Part shown: in pieces, positions 5,391 to 22,384 of the stretch
How positions within the stretch are numbered: position 1 is the first letter of the stretch
Layout of the letters: every line of letters begins with the position of its first letter
NCBI GenBank assembly: GCA_031285625.1
Contig: JAITVV010000041.1
Span: 1 to 22,684 of the forward strand
Length of the DNA: 22,684 nt
DNA from: Prevotella sp.
Lineage (GTDB): Bacteria > Bacteroidota > Bacteroidia > Bacteroidales > Dysgonomonadaceae
Reading direction: 5' to 3'
Program-made: the position numbers and the translations under genes
The notes under the pieces: generated by a model
What the model was told of the DNA's origin: nothing
What the model saw: only the letters and a program-made list of their open reading frames with translations
The model's database searches: none

Positions 5391-5495
5391 ATTGAATCTC
5401 CTCGCAGATTAATACGAACTTTTAATATTAGGATTAACGATATCAATTATTTTCTCTATTTTTAATCAGCTGAGAAGCAACATCTTGATTATTTT

Positions 5496-5625
5496 ATTAA
5501 AAAAATCTTCTCAAAGCTATTGCAGGATTCAAATCCTTATCCTATCTTTGCATCGCATTTGAGAGATAATGCAACCTCAAAAAAACGGTGTGGTAGTTCA
5601 GCTGGTTAGAATACCTGCCTGTCAC
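5496..5625 (+). repeat. attL direct repeat (tRNA promoter, leader and 5' half of tRNA-Asp)
   Basis: 130 bp matching 17221-17352 except one substitution (GCAACC/GCAGCC) and A7 versus A9. Contains the -7 box TATCTTTG at 5543-5550. Confidence 0.95.
5587..5625 (+). pseudogene. Truncated 5' half of tRNA-Asp(GTC)
   Basis: GGTGTGGTAGTTCAGCTGGTTAGAATACCTGCCTGTCAC, after which identity to the tRNA stops at the end of the anticodon loop. Confidence 0.92.
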
Positions 5626-7952: not shown

Positions 7953-9284
7953 CTATAATATATCTTCCCAAAATTTCTGATCTTGTTGGTCTATATCAAG
8001 CCCTGAATTATAATATTCACTATCATAAATAGATTTATGTTCCTGATAATTATTACATTGTTTTTGAATAACTTTAGTATTATTCTCTTTTAATGATAAT
8101 ACTGCTCCATGATTAATTAGAAGCTTAATAATCTCAGTATTATTATCTTCATAAGCCTTATCTAAAACAGTTTTATCTTTATATCCATTATCATTTATAT
8201 CTAATCCATTTTCTATTAAAAGTGCTAACATTGAGGAAGATATATATCCATATGCTTTAAATAGTAAGGAAACAGTATAATAATAATGAGCATCATAATA
8301 TCTTGTTTCAGTATAGTTAGAACAATATTCATAATTATAATCTTCATGCTCATAACTCTCTAATTTCTCTTCATGTATTGATACAGTAAGTTTAGAGCCT
8401 TTTTGAATTAAGTAGTTGACAATATCTATATGGTTATTTTGAATTGCATATAGGAGTGCTGTATTTCCTTTTCTATCTTCTAAGTTTATGTATTCTTCTT
8501 CTCTAATATGGTTAGATATGAAGCTTCTTCTTATAGAAGTTGATTTATTATATTCCTCTTCACATACTTTATTATGCTCTACTAGTTTCTTAACTATATC
8601 TGTATAGCCCATTTTTGAAGCTATATGTAGTTCACAAGGATAACATTCTTCAAGGTATTGATAGCCATAATAAAGGTTAGAAAAATAGGAATGAGAGTAG
8701 CTTGTGCGTTTATGAAATATCAAGCCCCCTTCTTTATCATTATCTAGTAAGTAATCAATGATTTCTGTATACCTATTTTTAACAGCTTCATATAAAGCTC
8801 TAAACCATTCTTCCAAAGGAGTACAATATTGAATATTTTCAACATGAATAAGAAAAAACTTTAAGGCTTCTAAATTTCTTTTTTCAGAAGCATCTGATAG
8901 AGAGAAAATCCCTTGTTTCCTGTATTTTTCTAAAATATTATTCTCTGGTGCTTCATTTATCTGATAATCTTTATTTTCATCTATTTTGGCTTGAATTTCT
9001 TCTTTACTTAAAGTGTTTGGTTGAGTATTATTATCTAATATCGCACTTCTTATCTTTCTTTTTCTTATGGATGGGGGAATAGTAGGTTGAGGATTACTTA
9101 TTACACTATCACTATTAAATAATGAAGTTGCTTCTTCTACTATTTCTCCTACTTCTTCTGTTGTTTCTTCAGATATTACTTGAGCTTTATTAGAATCTAA
9201 TCTTTCTTGTTTTGCTTCATTTAAAGCTGTATTTCTACTAGGTCTTCTCTTTCTAGGAGAAGGTTCTTGAGGTTTTCTTCCCAT
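7953..9284 (-). CDS. Ankyrin repeat protein with a disordered basic N-terminus
   Basis: GNTALLYAIQNNHIDIVNYLIQKG, LHIASKMGYTDIVKKLVEH and TVLDKAYEDNNTEIIKLLINHGA. Confidence 0.85.
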   Translation of the reverse strand: MGRKPQEPSPRKRRPSRNTALNEAKQERLDSNKAQVISEETTEEVGEIVEEATSLFNSDSVISNPQPTIPPSIRKRKIRSAILDNNTQPNTLSKEEIQAKIDENKDYQINEAPENNILEKYRKQGIFSLSDASEKRNLEALKFFLIHVENIQYCTPLEEWFRALYEAVKNRYTEIIDYLLDNDKEGGLIFHKRTSYSHSYFSNLYYGYQYLEECYPCELHIASKMGYTDIVKKLVEHNKVCEEEYNKSTSIRRSFISNHIREEEYINLEDRKGNTALLYAIQNNHIDIVNYLIQKGSKLTVSIHEEKLESYEHEDYNYEYCSNYTETRYYDAHYYYTVSLLFKAYGYISSSMLALLIENGLDINDNGYKDKTVLDKAYEDNNTEIIKLLINHGAVLSLKENNTKVIQKQCNNYQEHKSIYDSEYYNSGLDIDQQDQKFWEDIL

Positions 9285-9310
9285 ATCAATACCTTTGTTG
9301 TTGAGGTATC

Positions 9311-9480
9311 AATAAAATAAAGTAGGCATGATACTATCCTTACTGCTATCAAGGTAGTCACCACAACACCCAGCCACAATAAGGAAGCTCATGCCTATAA
9401 CATGAACATCTACTTATTACTGTTGTGGCTAATTTAAAAGTGGTGAATTTTTGATAGCACTAGTAATAAAGCAATGCTTT
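9311..9480 (-). ncRNA. Putative structured leader/antisense RNA with alternative (terminator/antiterminator) pairings
   Basis: Nested stems 9344-9352/9451-9459, 9358-9364/9440-9446 and 9372-9379/9423-9430 compete with 9323-9331/9389-9397 and 9337-9345/9377-9385, which are followed by a U-rich tract on the minus strand. A TAnnTTTG box lies at 9542-9549 (-). Confidence 0.65.
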
Positions 9481-9697
9481 ATATTATGTATATCCTAATC
9501 TATTTTATCTCTCCATATTATTAATGATTAAATATTTATGACAAAAATAACTATTTTATCAAGAATAGAATCATTTAACAGAAGAAGATTAGACTATAAT
9601 ATTGGCATGAGCTCATAGCCCACTATCTTGATAGCAAATAAATAAAATATATGATTACAAAATAGAATACTACAAGGCTTGCAGTTCTTATATAGTT

Positions 9698-10978
9698 TTA
9701 AAATGGAAAGCTATCTTCTGTATCATCATCAGAAGCAATGTAGTTATAGTGTTTTTTATGTTTGATATATTCAAATGGAGTTTTGATTACATCTACTTTT
9801 ATTTCAACTTCTTCTAATGTGACTAGATTTCTGTCTAAGCTAATCTTTTTTGGAGTGGCTCTATTGCCCGTAATAAAATAGTTATCAGCAATAGCTTCAT
9901 CAAAATGCTTAATAAAGGCTTCTCTTATTCTGGAGCATTTCTCATTGATAGAATTTAATGTTGGATTAACAATATCATTGATGCTTTTCTCCATATCACC
10001 AATATTTTCTCTTCCTGATACTTTCTTATATATAGCAATTAGTTCATCTCTGTAGTCAGGTAAATTCTTAAATAATATTCCTTCTGGATGATTCAAAAAT
10101 AAGAAAAATACAGCTTTAGGAAGTGGATACATGGTTATTTCCAAATTATTATAGTCTGGTAGAATAATCTTATATTCATTAGTGATAATAAGCCTGCTTA
10201 ACTTCACTGAATCAATAGAAAATATGGATTTCAACACCATCTCATTGATACCTTTTTGCTTCAAAGCTGCAATACGTTCCTTAATTTCTTCTATTAGCTT
10301 TTGGGATTCAGAATCAAATTCATAGTCTGCATTGTCATCTGGATTTTCTATGTAAGGATAGGGAGGAGGGGAAGCACTGTATAATACATTGCCAGCACCA
10401 ACAGCACTTAAGTAAGCTCTGATCTGCTCCCATATTTCAGTTTTATCTAAATTGCTGAATTGATAATAGGAGAAGATATAGTAGTCATCTTCATTATCCT
10501 TATATCTTAACAAACCTCCTTCTAATGTAATAGCTACATCAGTGAAAGACATTGTTTTATCAATAATGTTCTGAGAAATTAAGCTGCTAGGTATAACATT
10601 CTTTTTATTTAATGTAGGATTTATATATTGGGCTTCTTCAATGCTTAAAGTCTTTATAAGTTTTGGTATATAAGTGAAATTATAACCTTTCTCTTCAAAT
10701 AAATTACATATCCCTTCATATTCCTTTGAGATAAAATTATTTAACTCCTCATTGAAATACTCTTCAAAATATATTACTTGTAGCTTATCTGGTATAAATG
10801 GAATATTTTTTTTGATTTTAATAATCAATGGTGGTTTTAAATACACTTTATCCATGAGATTTTTCTTTTCATCTAAAATACTGCTTTTTCTACAATAAGA
10901 AAATTTCCTAAGATAATGATATAAAAAATAGCACAGATACTTATTATAGTTTAGAAAGTACCTGTGCTGAAAACTCAT
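9698..10978 (-). CDS. Hypothetical protein with a C-terminal winged-helix-like domain (putative regulator)
   Basis: EITMYPLPKAVFFLFLNHPEGI...SINEKCSRIR...YFITG resembles an OmpR-type wHTH. Acidic tail DDDTEDSFPF. The start may be the downstream Met at 10855. Confidence 0.7.
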   Translation of the reverse strand: MSFQHRYFLNYNKYLCYFLYHYLRKFSYCRKSSILDEKKNLMDKVYLKPPLIIKIKKNIPFIPDKLQVIYFEEYFNEELNNFISKEYEGICNLFEEKGYNFTYIPKLIKTLSIEEAQYINPTLNKKNVIPSSLISQNIIDKTMSFTDVAITLEGGLLRYKDNEDDYYIFSYYQFSNLDKTEIWEQIRAYLSAVGAGNVLYSASPPPYPYIENPDDNADYEFDSESQKLIEEIKERIAALKQKGINEMVLKSIFSIDSVKLSRLIITNEYKIILPDYNNLEITMYPLPKAVFFLFLNHPEGILFKNLPDYRDELIAIYKKVSGRENIGDMEKSINDIVNPTLNSINEKCSRIREAFIKHFDEAIADNYFITGNRATPKKISLDRNLVTLEEVEIKVDVIKTPFEYIKHKKHYNYIASDDDTEDSFPF

Positions 10979-13508: not shown

Positions 13509-13781
13509 TTATAATTTAGCTAAGGTTGTAGCTCCTGATGTTTCTCCTCTTTGATGCAGTAAGAAAAACATTTCTCCTGTCATTGGTACACATACTTGAG
13601 ATATAACAGGCATGGTTACTTCTCCTGTAATAACTCTTTTGGAACAAGCCCCTGTTTCTACTCCATAGGTAAAGAAGCATTTACCTGTAGATTCATTCCT
13701 TTTAATTTCAATCTCATGTACTTGTTGATTGTTTTTGAAGTCATTTACTGACCATGTTTGTAAGAATTTTAGATTTTCCAT
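13509..13781 (-). CDS. Small hypothetical protein (beta-rich, possibly OB-fold/SSB-like)
   Basis: 90-aa ORF with an A-rich leader and its own terminator. The fold is only inferred. Confidence 0.75.
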   Translation of the reverse strand: MENLKFLQTWSVNDFKNNQQVHEIEIKRNESTGKCFFTYGVETGACSKRVITGEVTMPVISQVCVPMTGEMFFLLHQRGETSGATTLAKL

Positions 13782-15764: not shown

Positions 15765-16973
15765 TTATAGCAGGTACTTCATAGCTTCATCAATCTGACT
15801 ATTTTCAAAGCTATCTAAATATATCTGAGTGGTCTTTAAATCTGAATGCCCTAGAGTTTCTCCAATTAAGGCAATATTTACACCAGAGTTCTTTAATACT
15901 GTTGCATAACTATGTCTTGAAACATAGGTAGTGAGATTAACCTCAATACCTGTCATCTGTGATATTTTCTTTAAATACCTGTTCACTTTCAATATGACTT
16001 TCTTCTTCCTGTTATATTGCTGCATCTTGGTTTTATGTATAGTGTGATCCAGTATAGGAAAGATATATTCATTATTAGAATCAATATACATCTTCATTAT
16101 CTCTTTGGCTTCATCACAGATAGGTACATTTATTTTTCTGTGTGTTTTCTGCCTAATATACATAAGTCTGTCATTAGTTATATTATTGTGCTTCAAATTA
16201 GCCATATCAGAGAAACTAATACCACTGCATAAGTAGCTAAACACAAATAAATCTCTGCTGAGTTGGATATATTCCTTTTCTTTAGATAGGTCAAGATTCA
16301 TAATGAGCTTTACATTGTCTTTTGAGATAGCTCTTTTCTCAGTTCTTATGCTGAATTTGGAGATTTTGAAGTCATTGAAAGGGTATGTATCTCTTTTAGC
16401 ATATCTTCTCTCTATAGCCTTGTTATAGGTACTTCTCAGAGTTCTAAAAAATAGATTCATGGAGCTATCCTTACAATTTCTACTTCTTAACCACTTCTCA
16501 TAACCTAGCAAAAAGTTCATATCAATATCAGAGAAGGGAATATCTAATTTGCTCTTATAATAGGCTTCTAATGATCTCAGGGAGTCTTTATATACTCTTG
16601 AATTACCTATTTTATCAGATTGTTCCATTTCTTTTATTAGTTCTGTATAGAACTCATTTACACTCTTTAGCCTATGCTTTTCTTTGGGCTTAATTAATGT
16701 TGAGGCTGTAAATTCCTTCTCTTCTGCTTTTAGTTCTAATATCTTCTTTTGAAGCTCTGCTTTTCTATCAATGATTATCTTTTCAATATAATCTCTGTTA
16801 GGACAATTTGTTTTAGGCTGATTCTTGCTAAAATCCCAAAATGTCGGATTTATGGATATGCCTAAACTTTTGTACCTAGTTTTTCTGTCCTTACATATTC
16901 TAATCATTATAGGACTTTCTCCATTTGATAACTTTTTCCCTCTAAAACAAATTACATTTACTGTTGTACTCAT
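15765..16973 (-). CDS. int: Tyrosine integrase, Bacteroidetes IntDOT-like
   Basis: Arm-binding N-terminus (NGESPIMIRI...YKSLG), SAM-like domain and catalytic GISFSD / RQKT / YVSRHSYA / LGHSDLKTTQIY. Adjacent to attR. Confidence 0.95.
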   Translation of the reverse strand: MSTTVNVICFRGKKLSNGESPIMIRICKDRKTRYKSLGISINPTFWDFSKNQPKTNCPNRDYIEKIIIDRKAELQKKILELKAEEKEFTASTLIKPKEKHRLKSVNEFYTELIKEMEQSDKIGNSRVYKDSLRSLEAYYKSKLDIPFSDIDMNFLLGYEKWLRSRNCKDSSMNLFFRTLRSTYNKAIERRYAKRDTYPFNDFKISKFSIRTEKRAISKDNVKLIMNLDLSKEKEYIQLSRDLFVFSYLCSGISFSDMANLKHNNITNDRLMYIRQKTHRKINVPICDEAKEIMKMYIDSNNEYIFPILDHTIHKTKMQQYNRKKKVILKVNRYLKKISQMTGIEVNLTTYVSRHSYATVLKNSGVNIALIGETLGHSDLKTTQIYLDSFENSQIDEAMKYLL

Positions 16974-17061: not shown

Positions 17062-17220
17062 TTTACTGAAAAATCAATGCAATTTTCCTGCAATTTTAAT
17101 ATTGAAATGATAAACTTTTAATTTTACTGACTAAGACAAGTTATTCAAACTCCTTTTCTACAAAAGATTCTCTAAAGACTGTATTTTTACCACTCTGATA
17201 AACAACTATTTGCAAAATAC

Positions 17221-17352
17221 ATTAAAAAAATCTTCTCAAAGCTATTGCAGGATTCAAATCCTTATCCTATCTTTGCATCGCATTTGAGAGATAATGCAGC
17301 CTCAAAAAAAAACGGTGTGGTAGTTCAGCTGGTTAGAATACCTGCCTGTCAC
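17221..17352 (+). repeat. attR direct repeat (replacement tRNA promoter and 5' half)
   Basis: Near-identical to 5496-5625. The -7 box TATCTTTG is at 17268-17275. Confidence 0.95.
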
Positions 17353-17390
17353 GCAGGGGGTCGCGGGTTCGAGTCCCGTCCATACCGCCA
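17314..17390 (+). tRNA. trnD: tRNA-Asp(GTC)
   Basis: 77 nt. Acceptor GGTGTGG/CCATACC, anticodon stem CCTGC-CTGTCAC-GCAGG, T loop GTTCGAGTC and encoded CCA. Confidence 0.98.
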
Positions 17391-17533: not shown

Positions 17534-18547
17534 TTATTTATATTCTCGCTGTAAATATTTCTCCACATAACGGCGAATAAAATGTTTAATATCTTTACTA
17601 AACATATACATCTCTTCTGATTTTCCAAATATTTCCCTATATATAGGGTGATCAAGCATTTTCAAAGTATTTTCAAAATTTTCCAATGACATCAACTTCT
17701 CAGTTTTAGTTTTAGATGATTTAAGTACTTTATATGTATCGAGTCCAATTTCATATATCCAAGGGAAATCATCTTTTAATAAGCTTATTATCATTAAAAA
17801 AGTTAAACTCGGATTTTCAAACTTCATTTCCATATGTATTATTTCTTCCAGCATCATAGGATGAAATTTTCTACGCCTTCTTATTTCAGGGTCATATAGC
17901 CTACTTTCAATTCGGGAAGGCAGAGCATCGATTTTGGATTTTAGTTCTTCAACAGTTTTAGATGACTGTATCCCCTTATCTATGTTTGAAACTGTAATTC
18001 TTAAATCAGAAATAGCTTCAACAATATCAGCCAAAGACCGTTCCTCAGCATCACCACTTTCCTTTAGCACTTTCAGGTCTAATGATACTGAAATAGGATT
18101 ATGAATTTCATTACTACCTGTTTCAATAGATTTTACTTGTGAGGCAATTTCTTCTTTTGCTGCCGCAACGCTATCTAAGTTGTGAAGATCAAATTGTATT
18201 ATTCTTGTTGCCGCGACATCAAAAGGGATGGCATCACCTTTTCTTATCATTTGGACAAGAGGTTTTCTTACCGCGTGTCTAACAGCTAATTCATAAAACA
18301 CATTTGGATTTCGTTCTGTTAAATCAGCAACAACAAGTTCCGCACTCACTATATATTCAATAATCTGTGTAGTAATAATGCCTGGTTCAGATATTTTATC
18401 AGCTCTAATCACTTCATATCCTAATTGTTTTACAGGTTCAGTAATTATGTGTTTTAATATCTGGTCGGAGCGTTCTCTTGTCTCGGAACCTTCCTCTCCT
18501 ATTGGAGATATAACAAAACAAATTTTCTTATCTTCTTTTTTAGCCAT
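17534..18547 (-). CDS. Nucleoside 2-deoxyribosyltransferase-like (TIR/NDT fold) domain protein with coiled coil and unknown C-terminal domain
   Basis: CFVISPIG...RAD...VVADLTERNPNVFYELAVRHA..KP...PFD pattern. Confidence 0.8.
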   Translation of the reverse strand: MAKKEDKKICFVISPIGEEGSETRERSDQILKHIITEPVKQLGYEVIRADKISEPGIITTQIIEYIVSAELVVADLTERNPNVFYELAVRHAVRKPLVQMIRKGDAIPFDVAATRIIQFDLHNLDSVAAAKEEIASQVKSIETGSNEIHNPISVSLDLKVLKESGDAEERSLADIVEAISDLRITVSNIDKGIQSSKTVEELKSKIDALPSRIESRLYDPEIRRRRKFHPMMLEEIIHMEMKFENPSLTFLMIISLLKDDFPWIYEIGLDTYKVLKSSKTKTEKLMSLENFENTLKMLDHPIYREIFGKSEEMYMFSKDIKHFIRRYVEKYLQREYK

Positions 18548-18566
18548 TGTTATTCAAATTATTAAT

Positions 18567-19443
18567 TCAAATTTTATCAAACCATTCAGGGTTTATCGTA
18601 ATCTCCTCGATCAATTCTGTTTTAACTCCAAGATTAAATTCTTTGAGTTTTTCACAAAGCAAATCTCCATCAATTAAATCAATCGGAGGTGCACCATCTC
18701 TTGACGCTTCCTTTATTGCATCACGTGTGAACTTTCCGGTAGTTATAAATATACCTTTGTCTGCACGCCCCCTGCATAGCACCTCTGAAATCTCGAATAT
18801 ATCCTGATGAAACAGAATCTTTAAACCTTTTACATTGAAAGAAAACATGAAAACTTAGAAAACCATTCAGTCTAACAATTCCTTTGCCATCAATGCCTCC
18901 ATCTCCAGATTTTCCCGTTACTTCAACTTGTACGAATCCACTTTCTCTTAAAATTCTCTGACTAAGCCTTTCAAAAGCAGAAGGATCTATATTTTGAATA
19001 ACTTTAAGAAGTTTATCTTTCCAATCTAATTTATCGGTTTCATTTTCGATAACTACTTCTAAGTTTTTACTCTGTATACCATTTTCTTCATTCGACAGAT
19101 AATTTTCAGTTCTAACAGTTTTAACAATATCATTAGAGCTAAAAGAATCTGGATTTATATCATTATCAATTAAAGCCCAAACAGCCCTTGATGAGTTTTC
19201 AACCAATCTATATTTTTTAAGATACGTTCTAGCCCATGCCAAACGATAATCAATCTCACTTTGTATACCGTCTTCTTTATGGGGAATGTTCAAAATATCC
19301 TCACTTATACTAGCTATTTGATAAACCTTTTCATTAATCTCTTCTATAGTACCAGAGCCATCTAGCTGTTTTAATGCTTTTAAAGTAGGGATAAGTAACT
19401 TGTCATAAGTTGGTACTTGATTGTGTATTTTCTTTTTTCCCAT
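18567..19443 (-). pseudogene. mrr: Mrr family type IV restriction endonuclease, +1 frameshift
   Basis: Mrr_N (YRLAWARTYLK) and Mrr_cat (SGDGGIDG...QCKR...FITT..F...IDLIDG) are split over two ORFs. Removing one G from the G5 run (18768-18772) restores AMQGRADKGIFITT and a 291-aa protein. Confidence 0.9.
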
Positions 19444-19515
19444 GTACTTGTATGTAAGATTTAAATTTCAGGCAATTTACGAATAAATTACTATAATTCT
19501 TTCTATTTTTGTTTT

Positions 19516-20265
19516 ATGTTAAATAAAATCAAATATAAGCTTAAATCAGTCGGCGTTTTTTTGATGGACAATCTCCATCAATCGCTCCATCTTGAATACA
19601 GGCTCCTGAAACGAGGCTACTTATTCTATCAGCATGAAGTAACCAAGCAGGACAAAACATTTGAATTGTATGTACGGGATTATTTGTCCGAAATACAAAA
19701 CTTCAATTACAAAACAGGAAAAGAACTATCAGAGAAAACACGTATACATGCAAGGGTATCTGATATATTTTCTCTTCGTCCTGATTTGATAAAACAATAT
19801 TTCAGCCAAAACGATTTTGTATTCACAGATTATCGAATTCTGACAAAGGAATATGACACTTCAATTATGGAAGAAGAGATAAGCCGACCATTGCCGGATA
19901 CAGAGGAAAATATAGTTGAACAACCGAGTTCTGACAACCTCGAAGAAAAATTAACCAAAGTCAGAGCAGAAATATTAAAATACGAATCAGGAGAGAAAAA
20001 GCCTAAACACATTGGGCAGCGAATATTCGGCTATTTGTTGAAAGCACATTATCTCAATGCTTACAACGATGAACAGCGTTTAGCTGAATGGCAAAAATTT
20101 ACAGGATTAGGGTCTAAACCGGAAATGAGTTACCTCCGAGAACCTGATTACAATAAAAACGAAACAAATAAAATAAATAAGCAACTTAAATCAATTGAGG
20201 AGTTCTTTTACCTAATTGGGTTAAACATTCCAATAGCTTATTCTGAGAAAGGAAAAAAGAAATAA
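19516..20265 (+). CDS. Hypothetical protein
   Basis: 249-aa ORF divergent from mrr. The start may be the Met at 19563-19565 region or later; no motif recognised. Confidence 0.65.
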   Translation: MLNKIKYKLKSVGVFLMDNLHQSLHLEYRLLKRGYLFYQHEVTKQDKTFELYVRDYLSEIQNFNYKTGKELSEKTRIHARVSDIFSLRPDLIKQYFSQNDFVFTDYRILTKEYDTSIMEEEISRPLPDTEENIVEQPSSDNLEEKLTKVRAEILKYESGEKKPKHIGQRIFGYLLKAHYLNAYNDEQRLAEWQKFTGLGSKPEMSYLREPDYNKNETNKINKQLKSIEEFFYLIGLNIPIAYSEKGKKK

Positions 20266-20286
20266 AATCAAAATATAAGAATTGAT

Positions 20287-20685
20287 ATGGAGATAAGAGA
20301 TTGGGTAACGATAGTCTCGGTTATAGCTATAGCTACTGGTTGGTTTATTAACAGTTGGCTTAATAGACGAAATGAGATAGCTAAAGAACGTCTTAAATAT
20401 AGAATGGACACATTAAAGTCAATTGTTATATTAAAGTCACAGATTGTCGAGGCATTACGTTTAGCATCTAATGATTTATCTTATAATTCATCTCATTTAA
20501 GTAAATTGACATATGATACAGTTGACCTAATCAATATATATGGAGAGAATGATGAAATAGAACTATGTGAGAAATTTATTCTTGCTCTTAATAACAGAGA
20601 TTATATTGCTTCTGAAGAAATTCTAAACAAATTCATTCATGTTGCTAGAGTAAAAATAAGAAAAGAATTAAAACTCTTAAGATAA
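20287..20685 (+). CDS. Hypothetical protein with an N-terminal membrane anchor
   Basis: Hydrophobic WVTIVSVIAIATGWFINSWL followed by a helical domain. Confidence 0.75.
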   Translation: MEIRDWVTIVSVIAIATGWFINSWLNRRNEIAKERLKYRMDTLKSIVILKSQIVEALRLASNDLSYNSSHLSKLTYDTVDLINIYGENDEIELCEKFILALNNRDYIASEEILNKFIHVARVKIRKELKLLR

Positions 20686-20706
20686 TAAAAGTTCATTGAT
20701 ATACAT

Positions 20707-20735
20707 AAAAAGCAGGCGGTTAGCCTGCTTTTTTT
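20707..20735 (+). terminator. Intrinsic (probably bidirectional) terminator
   Basis: AAAAAGCAGGC-ggtta-GCCTGCTTTTTTT. Confidence 0.88.
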
Positions 20736-20893
20736 ATGCCTATTTTCTTAAAATTCACTTTATTTTTCTATGATAAAAATAAAGGAAATATCGTAAAAAT
20801 ATCATATAATATCATTAATTATAACAAACTTTAGAAGTCTGGTTATCAATATTATATTCGCAGAAAAATTTGTAATTTCTAAATTCTTATTTT

Positions 20894-21175
20894 ATGCGAA
20901 ACAAAAATTATTTACGCTGGCATAAGCCAGAAGAAGAGGAAGTCAAAGATAACTCTTCCAAGAAAGAAATGTCGCCCATAGATAAGGCGATGAGTAATCT
21001 AATCAAGATGAAAGAGGCTGTAAAACTACTCAAAGCCTCAGCTCCCACAGTTCGCAAGTATGCCCGGCTCGGTTATTATAAAGAATACCGATTCGGCGAA
21101 AAACTTGTCTTTTACGACAAAGAAGAAATCTTAAACTTTATTCTAAACCGATTCAAAACCGCAGAAGATTCTTAA
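20894..21175 (+). CDS. Excisionase-like HTH_17/MerR-type DNA-binding protein
   Basis: MKEAVKLLKASAPTVRKYARLG....RFGEKLVFYDKEEI, located directly before VirE. Confidence 0.8.
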   Translation: MRNKNYLRWHKPEEEEVKDNSSKKEMSPIDKAMSNLIKMKEAVKLLKASAPTVRKYARLGYYKEYRFGEKLVFYDKEEILNFILNRFKTAEDS

Positions 21176-21179
21176 TCCC

Positions 21180-22384
21180 ATGAAAGAAAAAGCATCAGCC
21201 TCTACCCGCAGGTCGAAGAACGAGCGGATTGAAGAAGAGCTGCGGACACTCTACAACTTTCGGTTCAATACCGTAAAGAGCCGAACTGAGTACCGGGATA
21301 TCCATGCACAAGGGGAATTCAGGCCTGTAACCAAATACTTCCTGAATTCCCTCCGCAGGGAAATCGATGTACGCATTGGTATTACCACTTCAGCCGATAA
21401 TATCCGGGCTATCCTCGAAAGCAACTTTGCGGAAAAGATACATCCTATCCGGGAATATCTTTCTAGATTGCCTTTGCTGAATCCGTTGGACTTTGGTTAT
21501 ACTGAGCAACTCTTGCAAACCGTTGAAGTCTCCAATCCTGATAAATGGAACGAGTATCTGGTAAAGTGGCTGATCGGGGTTGTAGCTAATGCTATGAGTG
21601 ATGTCGGTTGCCAGAATCACACTTGTTTAGTACTGACAGGCGAACAGGGTAAATTCAAAACAACATGGCTTGACCATCTTTGCCCAACATCATTAAAAAG
21701 TTATCTGTTCACAGGGAAGATAGATCCGCAGGGAAAAGATGTATTGACCCTGATAGCCGAATATCTGTTTATCAATATTGACGACCAGTTACGCGCTTTA
21801 AACAAACGTGACGAGAACGAACTCAAAAACCTGATAACGACTCCGGCTGTCAAGTACCGCCGTCCATACGATACCTACATTGAAGAATACTCGCATCTGG
21901 CGAGCTTTATGGCATCGGTGAACGGCAACGATTTTCTGACTGATCCCACAGGGAGCAGGAGGTTTCTACCATTCGAGGTTATCCGTATTGATATCGACAA
22001 GGCTTTATCCATCAATATGGATCATGTTTTCTCTGAAATTATTTATACAAACAAAGTGTCCGCTATTGGTTTGACGACAAGGAGATAGAAGAATTACACA
22101 GGTTAAGTTCGGGCTTTCATGTGCAGACGGTAGAATATGAAATGCTGATGCAGGGTTTTGAAAAGCCGGATGATACGGACGATTCGTTTATGACAACGGC
22201 TCAGGTACTGAACTATCTTAGGATGTTCAGCTCTTTGCCCCTGTCAGAGAAACGGATGGGTGAAGCCATCCGGAAGGCTGGATTTATACGGACTCAGAAA
22301 CGGATTAACCGCAATCCCTCTCCTGTATATGGTTACCGGATAAAGAAGATTAAGCCGAATCCCTTTATCGACCACGAACTGTAA
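21180..22384 (+). pseudogene. VirE/VapE family P-loop ATPase (putative helicase), frameshifted
   Basis: Walker A LTGEQGKFKTTW, INIDD, RRPY and DPTGSRRF. Near 22041-22045 the frame shifts, and the alternate frame reads YKQSVRYWFDDKEIEELH straight into ORF 22121-22384. Confidence 0.85.

Follow-up and report, generated by a model that had tools for sequence, protein, structure and literature searches.

Introduction

In the c4 layout, segments a' and b' lie in the loops of a short processed antisense RNA, and a2 and b2 lie downstream, at the start of icd. C4 antisense RNA and Icd regulate Ant, as stated in an excerpt of PMC8201110. Attenuators of the trp-leader type consist of four segments, in which pairing of 1 with 2 together with that of 3 with 4 (the terminator with its U-run) excludes pairing of 2 with 3. 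Viroid RNAs can take rod or hairpin forms, and kissing hairpins can give way to an extended duplex. To our knowledge, understanding of RNA-mediated regulation in Bacteroidota is very limited, and we know of no Hfq in this phylum.

Here, we analyzed a 22,684-nt stretch of DNA from Prevotella sp. (contig JAITVV010000041.1 of assembly GCA_031285625.1), referred to below as the window. Its initial annotation had proposed a c4/CI-like antisense switch upstream of an ankyrin-repeat gene. The locus does share with the P1/P7 c4 and P4 CI RNAs short complementary segments that lie up- and downstream within one mobile-element transcript, as well as a supposed control of downstream genes. The competing structures and the terminator proposed in that annotation were supported by our analysis, whereas the analogy to c4/CI was not.

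Results

The RNA locus lies within an integrative element

The RNA locus is located inside an 11.7-kb integrative element that is inserted in tRNA-Asp and bracketed by a direct repeat. The landmarks of the element are as follows.

5579-5625 and 17306-17352: perfect 47-nt direct repeat, which duplicates the 5' half of tRNA-Asp
15765-16973: tyrosine integrase, next to the intact tRNA
9698-10978, minus strand: 426-aa hypothetical protein, a member of the gene family with which the RNA is associated
7953-9284, minus strand: ankyrin-repeat gene (ATG at 9284-9282), first of five same-strand ORFs that extend down to 5805

The perfect 47 nt are enclosed by a 132-nt stretch of 86% identity. The direct repeat (5454-5625 and 17179-17352) copies the region upstream of tRNA-Asp (17314-17390) and the 5' part of the tRNA gene, up to the anticodon loop and hence one half of it. 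The sequence of the window is rich in AT; its GC content is 25-31% across the element and 34-40% to the left of it. The 426-aa gene is followed by a 413-nt gap that contains the RNA, by the ankyrin-repeat gene and by four small ORFs; the element also encodes a DUF3871 protein and several proteins that belong to no family. A Bacteroidales origin is indicated by the arm-binding and SAM-like domains of the integrase, by the DUF3871 protein and by those relatives of the 426-aa protein that carry a name. PADLOC, PHROGs and NCBIfam yielded no function for the core proteins of the element.

The sequence of the ankyrin protein suggests that it may be a host-directed protein of a symbiont. When inspected by eye, its basic, proline/arginine-rich N-terminus resembles a eukaryotic nuclear-targeting signal. 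Comparison with models of Dot/Icm ankyrin effectors gave 46 bits, far below the cut-off of 600 bits. A second island is present beyond the tRNA (17534-22088), and encodes a TIR-like protein (PADLOC effector model, E 1e-8), an Mrr-type restriction endonuclease, an HTH_17 excisionase-like protein and a VapE-like primase/helicase.

Complementary motifs in the intergenic region

The region between the 426-aa gene and the ankyrin-repeat gene carries the motifs listed below.

9622-9636, minus strand: a1, complementary to a' over 15 nt at 93% (I2), itself palindromic and specific to the window
9604-9613, minus strand: b1, complementary to b' over 14 nt at 93% (I6), also palindromic and specific to the window
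9459-9451, minus strand: a2, complementary to a' over 12 nt at 92% (I10)
9407-9399, minus strand: b0, a fifth partner that forms a local hairpin with b'
9397-9386, minus strand: b', complementary to b2 over 9 nt at 100% (I15)
9358-9344, minus strand: a', whose partners are a1 and a2
9331-9323, minus strand: b2, which adjoins the U-run and whose last base is 38 nt away from the ankyrin ATG
9320-9311, minus strand: U-run, directly after the b2 hairpin

Six of these motifs (a1, b1, a2, b', a' and b2) had been described in the initial annotation, and we recovered all of them at the positions given there, together with the U-rich run that follows. The repeat finder also upheld the claim that a' and b' each have several complementary partners, the complementarity being far beyond chance. 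The motif b0, the strand termed S0 below and the part played by a2:a' as the base helix of a conserved rod had been missed. The 376-nt intergenic RNA folds at -104.6 kcal/mol, compared to -73.7 +/- 5.4 kcal/mol for 100 shuffled sequences (z = -5.8, 0/100 as good).

A family of structured RNAs linked to the 426-aa gene

Relatives of the RNA were searched for in 80 loci (of ~8 kb each) surrounding relatives of the 426-aa protein in species-representative genomes, by employing nhmmer, then three rounds of covariance models, and then a pass over all 81 sources with filters off. A single DNA relative, L048, was identified by nhmmer. Full-length members were found in the window and in eight of the 80 loci (L048, L041, L058, L056, L053, L022, L066 and L008), which correspond to about seven lineages; L058, L056 and L053 are near-identical. 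L008 scored only 15.5 bits, and was accepted upon reading of its sequence, in which every element is present. Twenty weaker model matches (E 0.02-2) were left out of the membership: the 14 whose alignments were inspected either lack most of the interior of the model or contain many non-standard pairs, and the other six were dropped by length alone (38-96 nt).

A first hand-written descriptor, composed of the hairpin, the tail complement and the U-run, recovered the six members then known, with 23 hits compared to 4-6 in shuffled sequences. A second descriptor (P0/GAAA/P1) was too permissive (167 hits versus 99-114 in shuffles) and was rejected; its recurrent match in L013, L035 and L039 was also dropped, since the sequence reads as coding. 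The window carries one copy of the RNA. A weak match to model R2 is present at 13592-13720 on the minus strand (16.2 bits, E 4.3); it terminates in a b2-like word, inside the ORF 13509-13781, and is probably due to chance.

The minus strand of the window between 9482 and 9311 is thus a member of a conserved family of structured RNAs of Bacteroidales, which was previously uncatalogued and is absent from Rfam 15. At the gathering score, a search of the whole window against Rfam 15 detected only a tRNA. When region 9150-9800 was searched at E up to 10, seven chance-level matches were obtained, none of them to a C4 family, and in five homologous loci the RNA had no match at E up to 1. These searches revealed no similarity to a BTnc RNA and no aptamer. 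BLASTN searches with the 413-nt intergenic region returned no plasmid, and only two 41-nt chance hits in phages. In the literature, the listings and abstracts returned by full-text searches contained no description of this RNA, which is weak evidence of absence.

The presence of the RNA in eight of the 80 loci is far above what would be expected of an unlinked single-copy element, indicating that it is linked to the 426-aa gene family; it is not obligatory for the family. Its position is variable. In the window and in L048 it is located downstream of the 426-aa gene, on the same strand, while in the L058 group and L066 it is found just upstream. In L041 it lies 3.2 kb upstream, where it heads a gene array, and in L022 and L008 it is on the opposite strand.

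Other features were observed in the vicinity of these copies. In L066 (3300-3400), the RNA locus starts ~190 nt after an apparent tRNA 3' end and a terminator. L056 carries a cobalamin riboswitch (856-1039, 73.9 bits) that precedes a TonB-dependent receptor, 2.6 kb upstream of the RNA copy. In L048, a sub-threshold match to a CRISPR repeat model (2859-2895, 30.2 bits versus a gathering score of 37) is located just upstream of the 426-aa homologue.

Fold A is a long imperfect rod

The RNA can be described by four strands, which are arranged in the window as follows.

about 9455-9482, minus strand: S0, 5' strand of an alternative 5' hairpin
9401-9464, minus strand: S1, ascending strand of the rod (P0 5', P1 5', P1b 5', P2 5' and b0)
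9462-9451, 9446-9440, 9432-9424 and 9407-9399, minus strand: S1 helices P0 5' (a2), P1 5', P1b 5' and b0
9341-9400, minus strand: S2, descending strand of the rod (apical loop, b', P2 3', P1b 3', P1 3' and a')
9397-9386, 9378-9370, 9364-9358 and 9358-9341, minus strand: S2 helices b', P1b 3', P1 3' and P0 3' (a')
9323-9345, minus strand: S3, a tail complementary to upper S2, with b2 as its last 9 nt

In fold A, S1 and S2 form a long imperfect rod with helices P0, P1, P1b, P2 and P3. P0 of the window corresponds to a longer version of a2:a', 12 bp with a single mismatch, and P3, the apex of the rod, is b0:b' (9407-9399 with 9395-9387). Within an alignment of eight sequences, 89.4% of the 282 cells of the rod are paired, as opposed to 39-46% with slid partners. 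Fitting of this alignment to the model favors the structure, and the slid controls employ the same alignment. Changes on both sides occur in 27 of the 37 pairs, and none of 500 shuffles reached any of the observed measures. Compensatory changes, as read from the aligned sequences, thus strongly back the rod.

The helix cells include 40 G-U pairs and seven A-C pairs, and the reverse strand scores far lower (18.6 versus 98.7 bits in L048). The pairing therefore takes place at the RNA level, on the minus strand. These results argue against a feature of the DNA itself, such as operator palindromes or half-sites for a protein encoded by the element, a recombination site, a cruciform or a MITE, as do the U-run, which follows on one strand only, the single copy in the window, and the differences between b0 and b2, which, as read, are transitions that preserve pairing with b'. 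a1 and b1, each palindromic and located upstream of a candidate -7 box, would suit a DNA-level feature, and the adjacent winged-helix-like protein may bind DNA, which is a weak argument; overall, we consider this explanation very unlikely.

An AUG is present 0-4 nt before b0 in five of seven lineages (9410-9408 in the window; L048, L041, L022 and L008), and is missing from L066 and from the L058 group. The ORFs that begin with it are short (4-17 codons) and unrelated in length and sequence, and the AUG may simply be conserved sequence of an internal loop.

Fold B places a hairpin at the U-run

Fold B consists of two hairpins, S0:S1 and S2:S3, and excludes the rod.

9311-9397, minus strand: S2:S3 hairpin and U-run (-34.2 kcal/mol; z = -4.4, 0/200 shuffles as good)

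With b':b2 as its base and the U-run immediately behind it, the S2:S3 hairpin is predicted to be an intrinsic terminator. In each of the six lineages that were folded, a hairpin of this type (-23 to -34 kcal/mol) extends up to the U-run, and it is significant in five of them. When folded alone, the 3' halves yielded z values of -4.4 (window), -4.1, -2.9, -3.9 and -5.2, as well as -1.1 for L048, and the 5' halves formed a hairpin with z of -2.3 to -2.7 in five of six lineages (-0.6 for L048). An AGC..GCU motif in S0 is common to the window, L058, L022, L066, L041 and L008.

In the common register, all 42 cells of b':b2 are paired, compared to 22-71% with slid partners, and two of six pairs display changes on both sides. 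On four of five measures, 12-13 of 500 shuffles reached the observed values, and 59/500 did so on the fifth. L066 is out of register here, and direct inspection of its sequence revealed an 8-bp b':b2 that consists of Watson-Crick pairs and differs in sequence. Compensatory changes thus back b':b2 as well, more modestly than the rod. The nested multi-helix structure and the long hairpin based on b':b2, which the initial annotation had set in competition with each other, hence both recur with compensatory changes in other lineages.

The minimum free energy (MFE) structure of the full-length constructs is the rod in all six lineages, and fold B lies above it by 5.7 kcal/mol in the window and by 11.8-15.9 kcal/mol in the five others. 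In L041, L058, L022 and L066, the MFE structure also pairs S0 with S3 up to the U-run, so that a terminator-like stem is possible in either fold; termination could then be constitutive, and a conditional terminator is less well supported in these lineages. The MFE structure of the window lacks S0:S3, and the rod leaves only a weak A-U/G-U hairpin before the U-run.

By reading of the folds, the internal loops of the rod would pair within each strand in fold B, and the two P1 strands would become two apical loops. These features are reminiscent of viroid rod/hairpin RNAs and of kissing hairpins that convert to an extended duplex; the analogy is one of architecture only, as there is neither homology nor a context of replication or dimerization. 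A tandem duplication of one hairpin was considered as the source of the four strands and rejected, since the halves align no better than shuffles (z -0.4 to 1.6).

The a1-b1 segment and the comparison to c4/CI

The stretch that comprises a1 and b1 pairs with the strand that runs from b' to a' at -41.5 kcal/mol, compared to -30.1 +/- 3.0 kcal/mol when the upstream sequence is shuffled (z = -3.8, 1/200). No counterpart of a1/b1 was found within the 330 nt upstream of the RNA in any of five other lineages (z -0.75 to +0.84), and neither motif was convincingly conserved when the 5' part of the window was aligned to L048. Being window-specific and located upstream of the candidate promoter, a1 and b1 lie outside the conserved RNA. 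They may represent a lineage-specific antiterminator, operator-like DNA sites, or the remnant of a partial inverted duplication. As a third partner of S2, a1-b1 would be present only in read-through transcripts from the 426-aa gene, where, speculatively, it would serve as an extra antiterminator.

These data bear directly on the c4/CI proposal, in which a short processed RNA would employ a' and b' to bind a1 and b1 upstream, and a2 and b2 downstream, and block the operon. The several partners of a' and b', the significant pairing of a1-b1 with the b'..a' strand in the window and the mobile-element setting are what such an RNA would be expected to display. However, the Rfam models C4, c4-2 and c4-a1b1 do not match, either at gathering score or at E up to 10, and a' and b' do not act as loops in a short antisense RNA but belong to intramolecular helices of the conserved rod. 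The order of the elements also differs: a2 is located upstream of a', not downstream, where it forms the base helix of the rod, and b2 ends at the U-run, short of the translation start of the first gene, where b2 is placed in c4. The a1/b1 pair lacks a counterpart in five of five lineages and lies upstream of the best promoter box. Finally, the host belongs to Bacteroidales, not Proteobacteria, and no icd/ant-like genes are present. A c4/CI-like mechanism therefore seems extremely improbable.

Promoter boxes and position relative to downstream genes

The Bacteroidetes -7 consensus is TAnnTTTG, according to an excerpt of PMC7366714. Two features of the window are of relevance for the start of the RNA and of the ankyrin gene.

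9542-9549, minus strand: candidate -7 box TATTTTTG, 79 nt before P0, which would start the RNA near 9535
9285-9313, minus strand: 10-bp hairpin with an A-rich loop, the last helix of the MFE structure, which overlaps the end of the U-run and ends one base before the ankyrin ATG

An exact -7 box precedes P0 by 79 nt in the window, by 76 nt in L041, by 60 nt in the L058 group and by 115 nt in L066; in L022 the box is only 6 nt before P0, and in L048 it is 239 nt away. Such boxes, which belong to promoters of the sigma-ABfr type, occur at chance frequency (39 matches in the window versus 33.6 expected), and only their consistent spacing counts. In the L058 group, L022 and L066, a second -7 box is present 47-129 nt after the U-run, suggesting that the next gene has its own promoter there; the RNA looks like a separate gene in these loci. 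In L066, as in the L058 group, the two boxes that flank the RNA lie in closely similar sequence contexts. A spacer of 26 nt that contains no promoter box separates the U-run of the window from the ankyrin ATG, and in L008 the ATG of an ORF follows the U-run by 5 nt; with no room for a promoter, these genes are reachable from this side only by read-through. The claim of the initial annotation that the switch gates five cargo genes is thus plausible in the window and in L008, and is weakened by the separate -7 box after the RNA in L022, L066 and the L058 group.

From the distance between the U-run and the ankyrin ATG and the lack of an intervening promoter box, we infer a cis-acting role for the RNA as a conditional terminator, or attenuator, in the leader of the ankyrin operon, a reading to which we give an even chance. 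Transcription of the RNA would probably begin at about 9535. Fold B (S0:S1 and S2:S3) would stop transcription before the five cargo genes, whereas the rod, which leaves only the weak hairpin before the U-run, would let RNA polymerase read on. The elements expected of an attenuator are present, namely a hairpin with a U-run, a conserved and mutually exclusive antiterminator that shares S2, and S0:S1 as a sequestering strand. Against it stand the prevalence of the rod at equilibrium everywhere and the small number of lineages, about seven with three near-identical loci.

Shared with four-segment attenuators of the trp-leader type are the exclusion of 2:3 by 1:2 and 3:4 and, in the window and L008, the place immediately ahead of an operon. 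The RNA differs from these systems in the great length of its strands (about 25-60 nt) and in its 2:3 form, a rod of ~40 bp; moreover, the next gene often appears to have its own promoter, and strand 1 is also able to pair with strand 4 in several lineages. They differ as well in the leader peptide: no conserved ORF, and hence no such sensor, was found over S0 or S1, and the L058 RNA is devoid of any AUG. A search for other sensors, by Rfam aptamer models and by a scan of the window for trans targets, also yielded none. Leader-peptide attenuation was rejected on these grounds.

The main rival is a stand-alone gene for a trans-acting sRNA, with its own promoter and a constitutive terminator, whose position before the ankyrin operon would be an accident of cargo insertion, and whose alternative fold would only ensure termination or later refolding. 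The -7 boxes that precede the RNA and reappear after the U-run in L022, L066 and the L058 group argue for it, as do the S0:S3 pairing up to the U-run in four lineages, which provides a terminator stem in both folds, and the variable place of the RNA, which may precede or follow its neighboring genes, occupy the other strand or lie at a distance of 3 kb. In addition, the RNA shares with Bacteroides intergenic sRNAs such as GibS, as described in an excerpt of PMC7366714, a length of ~170-230 nt and a terminal hairpin with a U-run, and its candidate -7 box, where suitably spaced, would also be in keeping with them; it differs from them in its lack of BTnc or Rfam similarity, its rod-like body with a conserved alternative fold and, in the window, its leader position. 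An sRNA gene does not account for ORFs that start 26 nt (window) or 5 nt (L008) after the U-run, where there is no room for a promoter. Furthermore, scanning of the window with b' and a' gave no convincing target except b1, b2 and a1, and the rod leaves few long single-stranded seed regions. We regard this rival as possible, if doubtful.

If the conditional terminator is real, a conserved and structurally well-supported RNA with two folds, carried by mobile elements, would provide a tractable model for the switching of cargo genes. It would also add a new family to RNA databases and to the annotation of Bacteroidales genomes from the gut, the rumen and symbionts.

Bacteroidota do not rely on Shine-Dalgarno-dependent initiation, as stated in an excerpt of PMC7366714. 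The 9285-9313 hairpin could mask the initiation region of the ankyrin gene in an organism that lacks this type of pairing.

The 426-aa protein family

The 426-aa protein has 2495 relatives at E up to 0.001, with at least 569 genomic hits, and its family is covered by no Pfam, NCBIfam, PHROG or PADLOC model. Its closest relatives (72-73% identity) are known only from metagenome assemblies. The predicted structure is of moderate confidence (mean pLDDT 77), and in a structure search its C-terminal part, which is the conserved third, weakly resembled the OmpR/PhoB winged helix (best E 0.07, probability 0.89). This prediction suggests that the protein may be a DNA-binding regulator; the winged-helix likeness says nothing about RNA.

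A broader proposal is that the RNA represents a new class of bistable four-strand riboregulators of Bacteroidales integrative elements, linked to the winged-helix-like family. A factor from the element or the host would flip the RNA between the ~40-bp rod and two kissing-loop hairpins and thereby decide on transcription of the cargo, here genes for eukaryote-style ankyrin proteins. The a1-b1 segment would add control by transcript origin, in that only RNA that reads through from the core operon would carry the extra antiterminator. We consider this proposal, as a whole, unlikely.

Two of the loci display particular neighborhoods or architectures of the 426-aa homologue, which is fused to TPR repeats in L048 and adjoins AbiH and a BspA-type LRR protein in L056.
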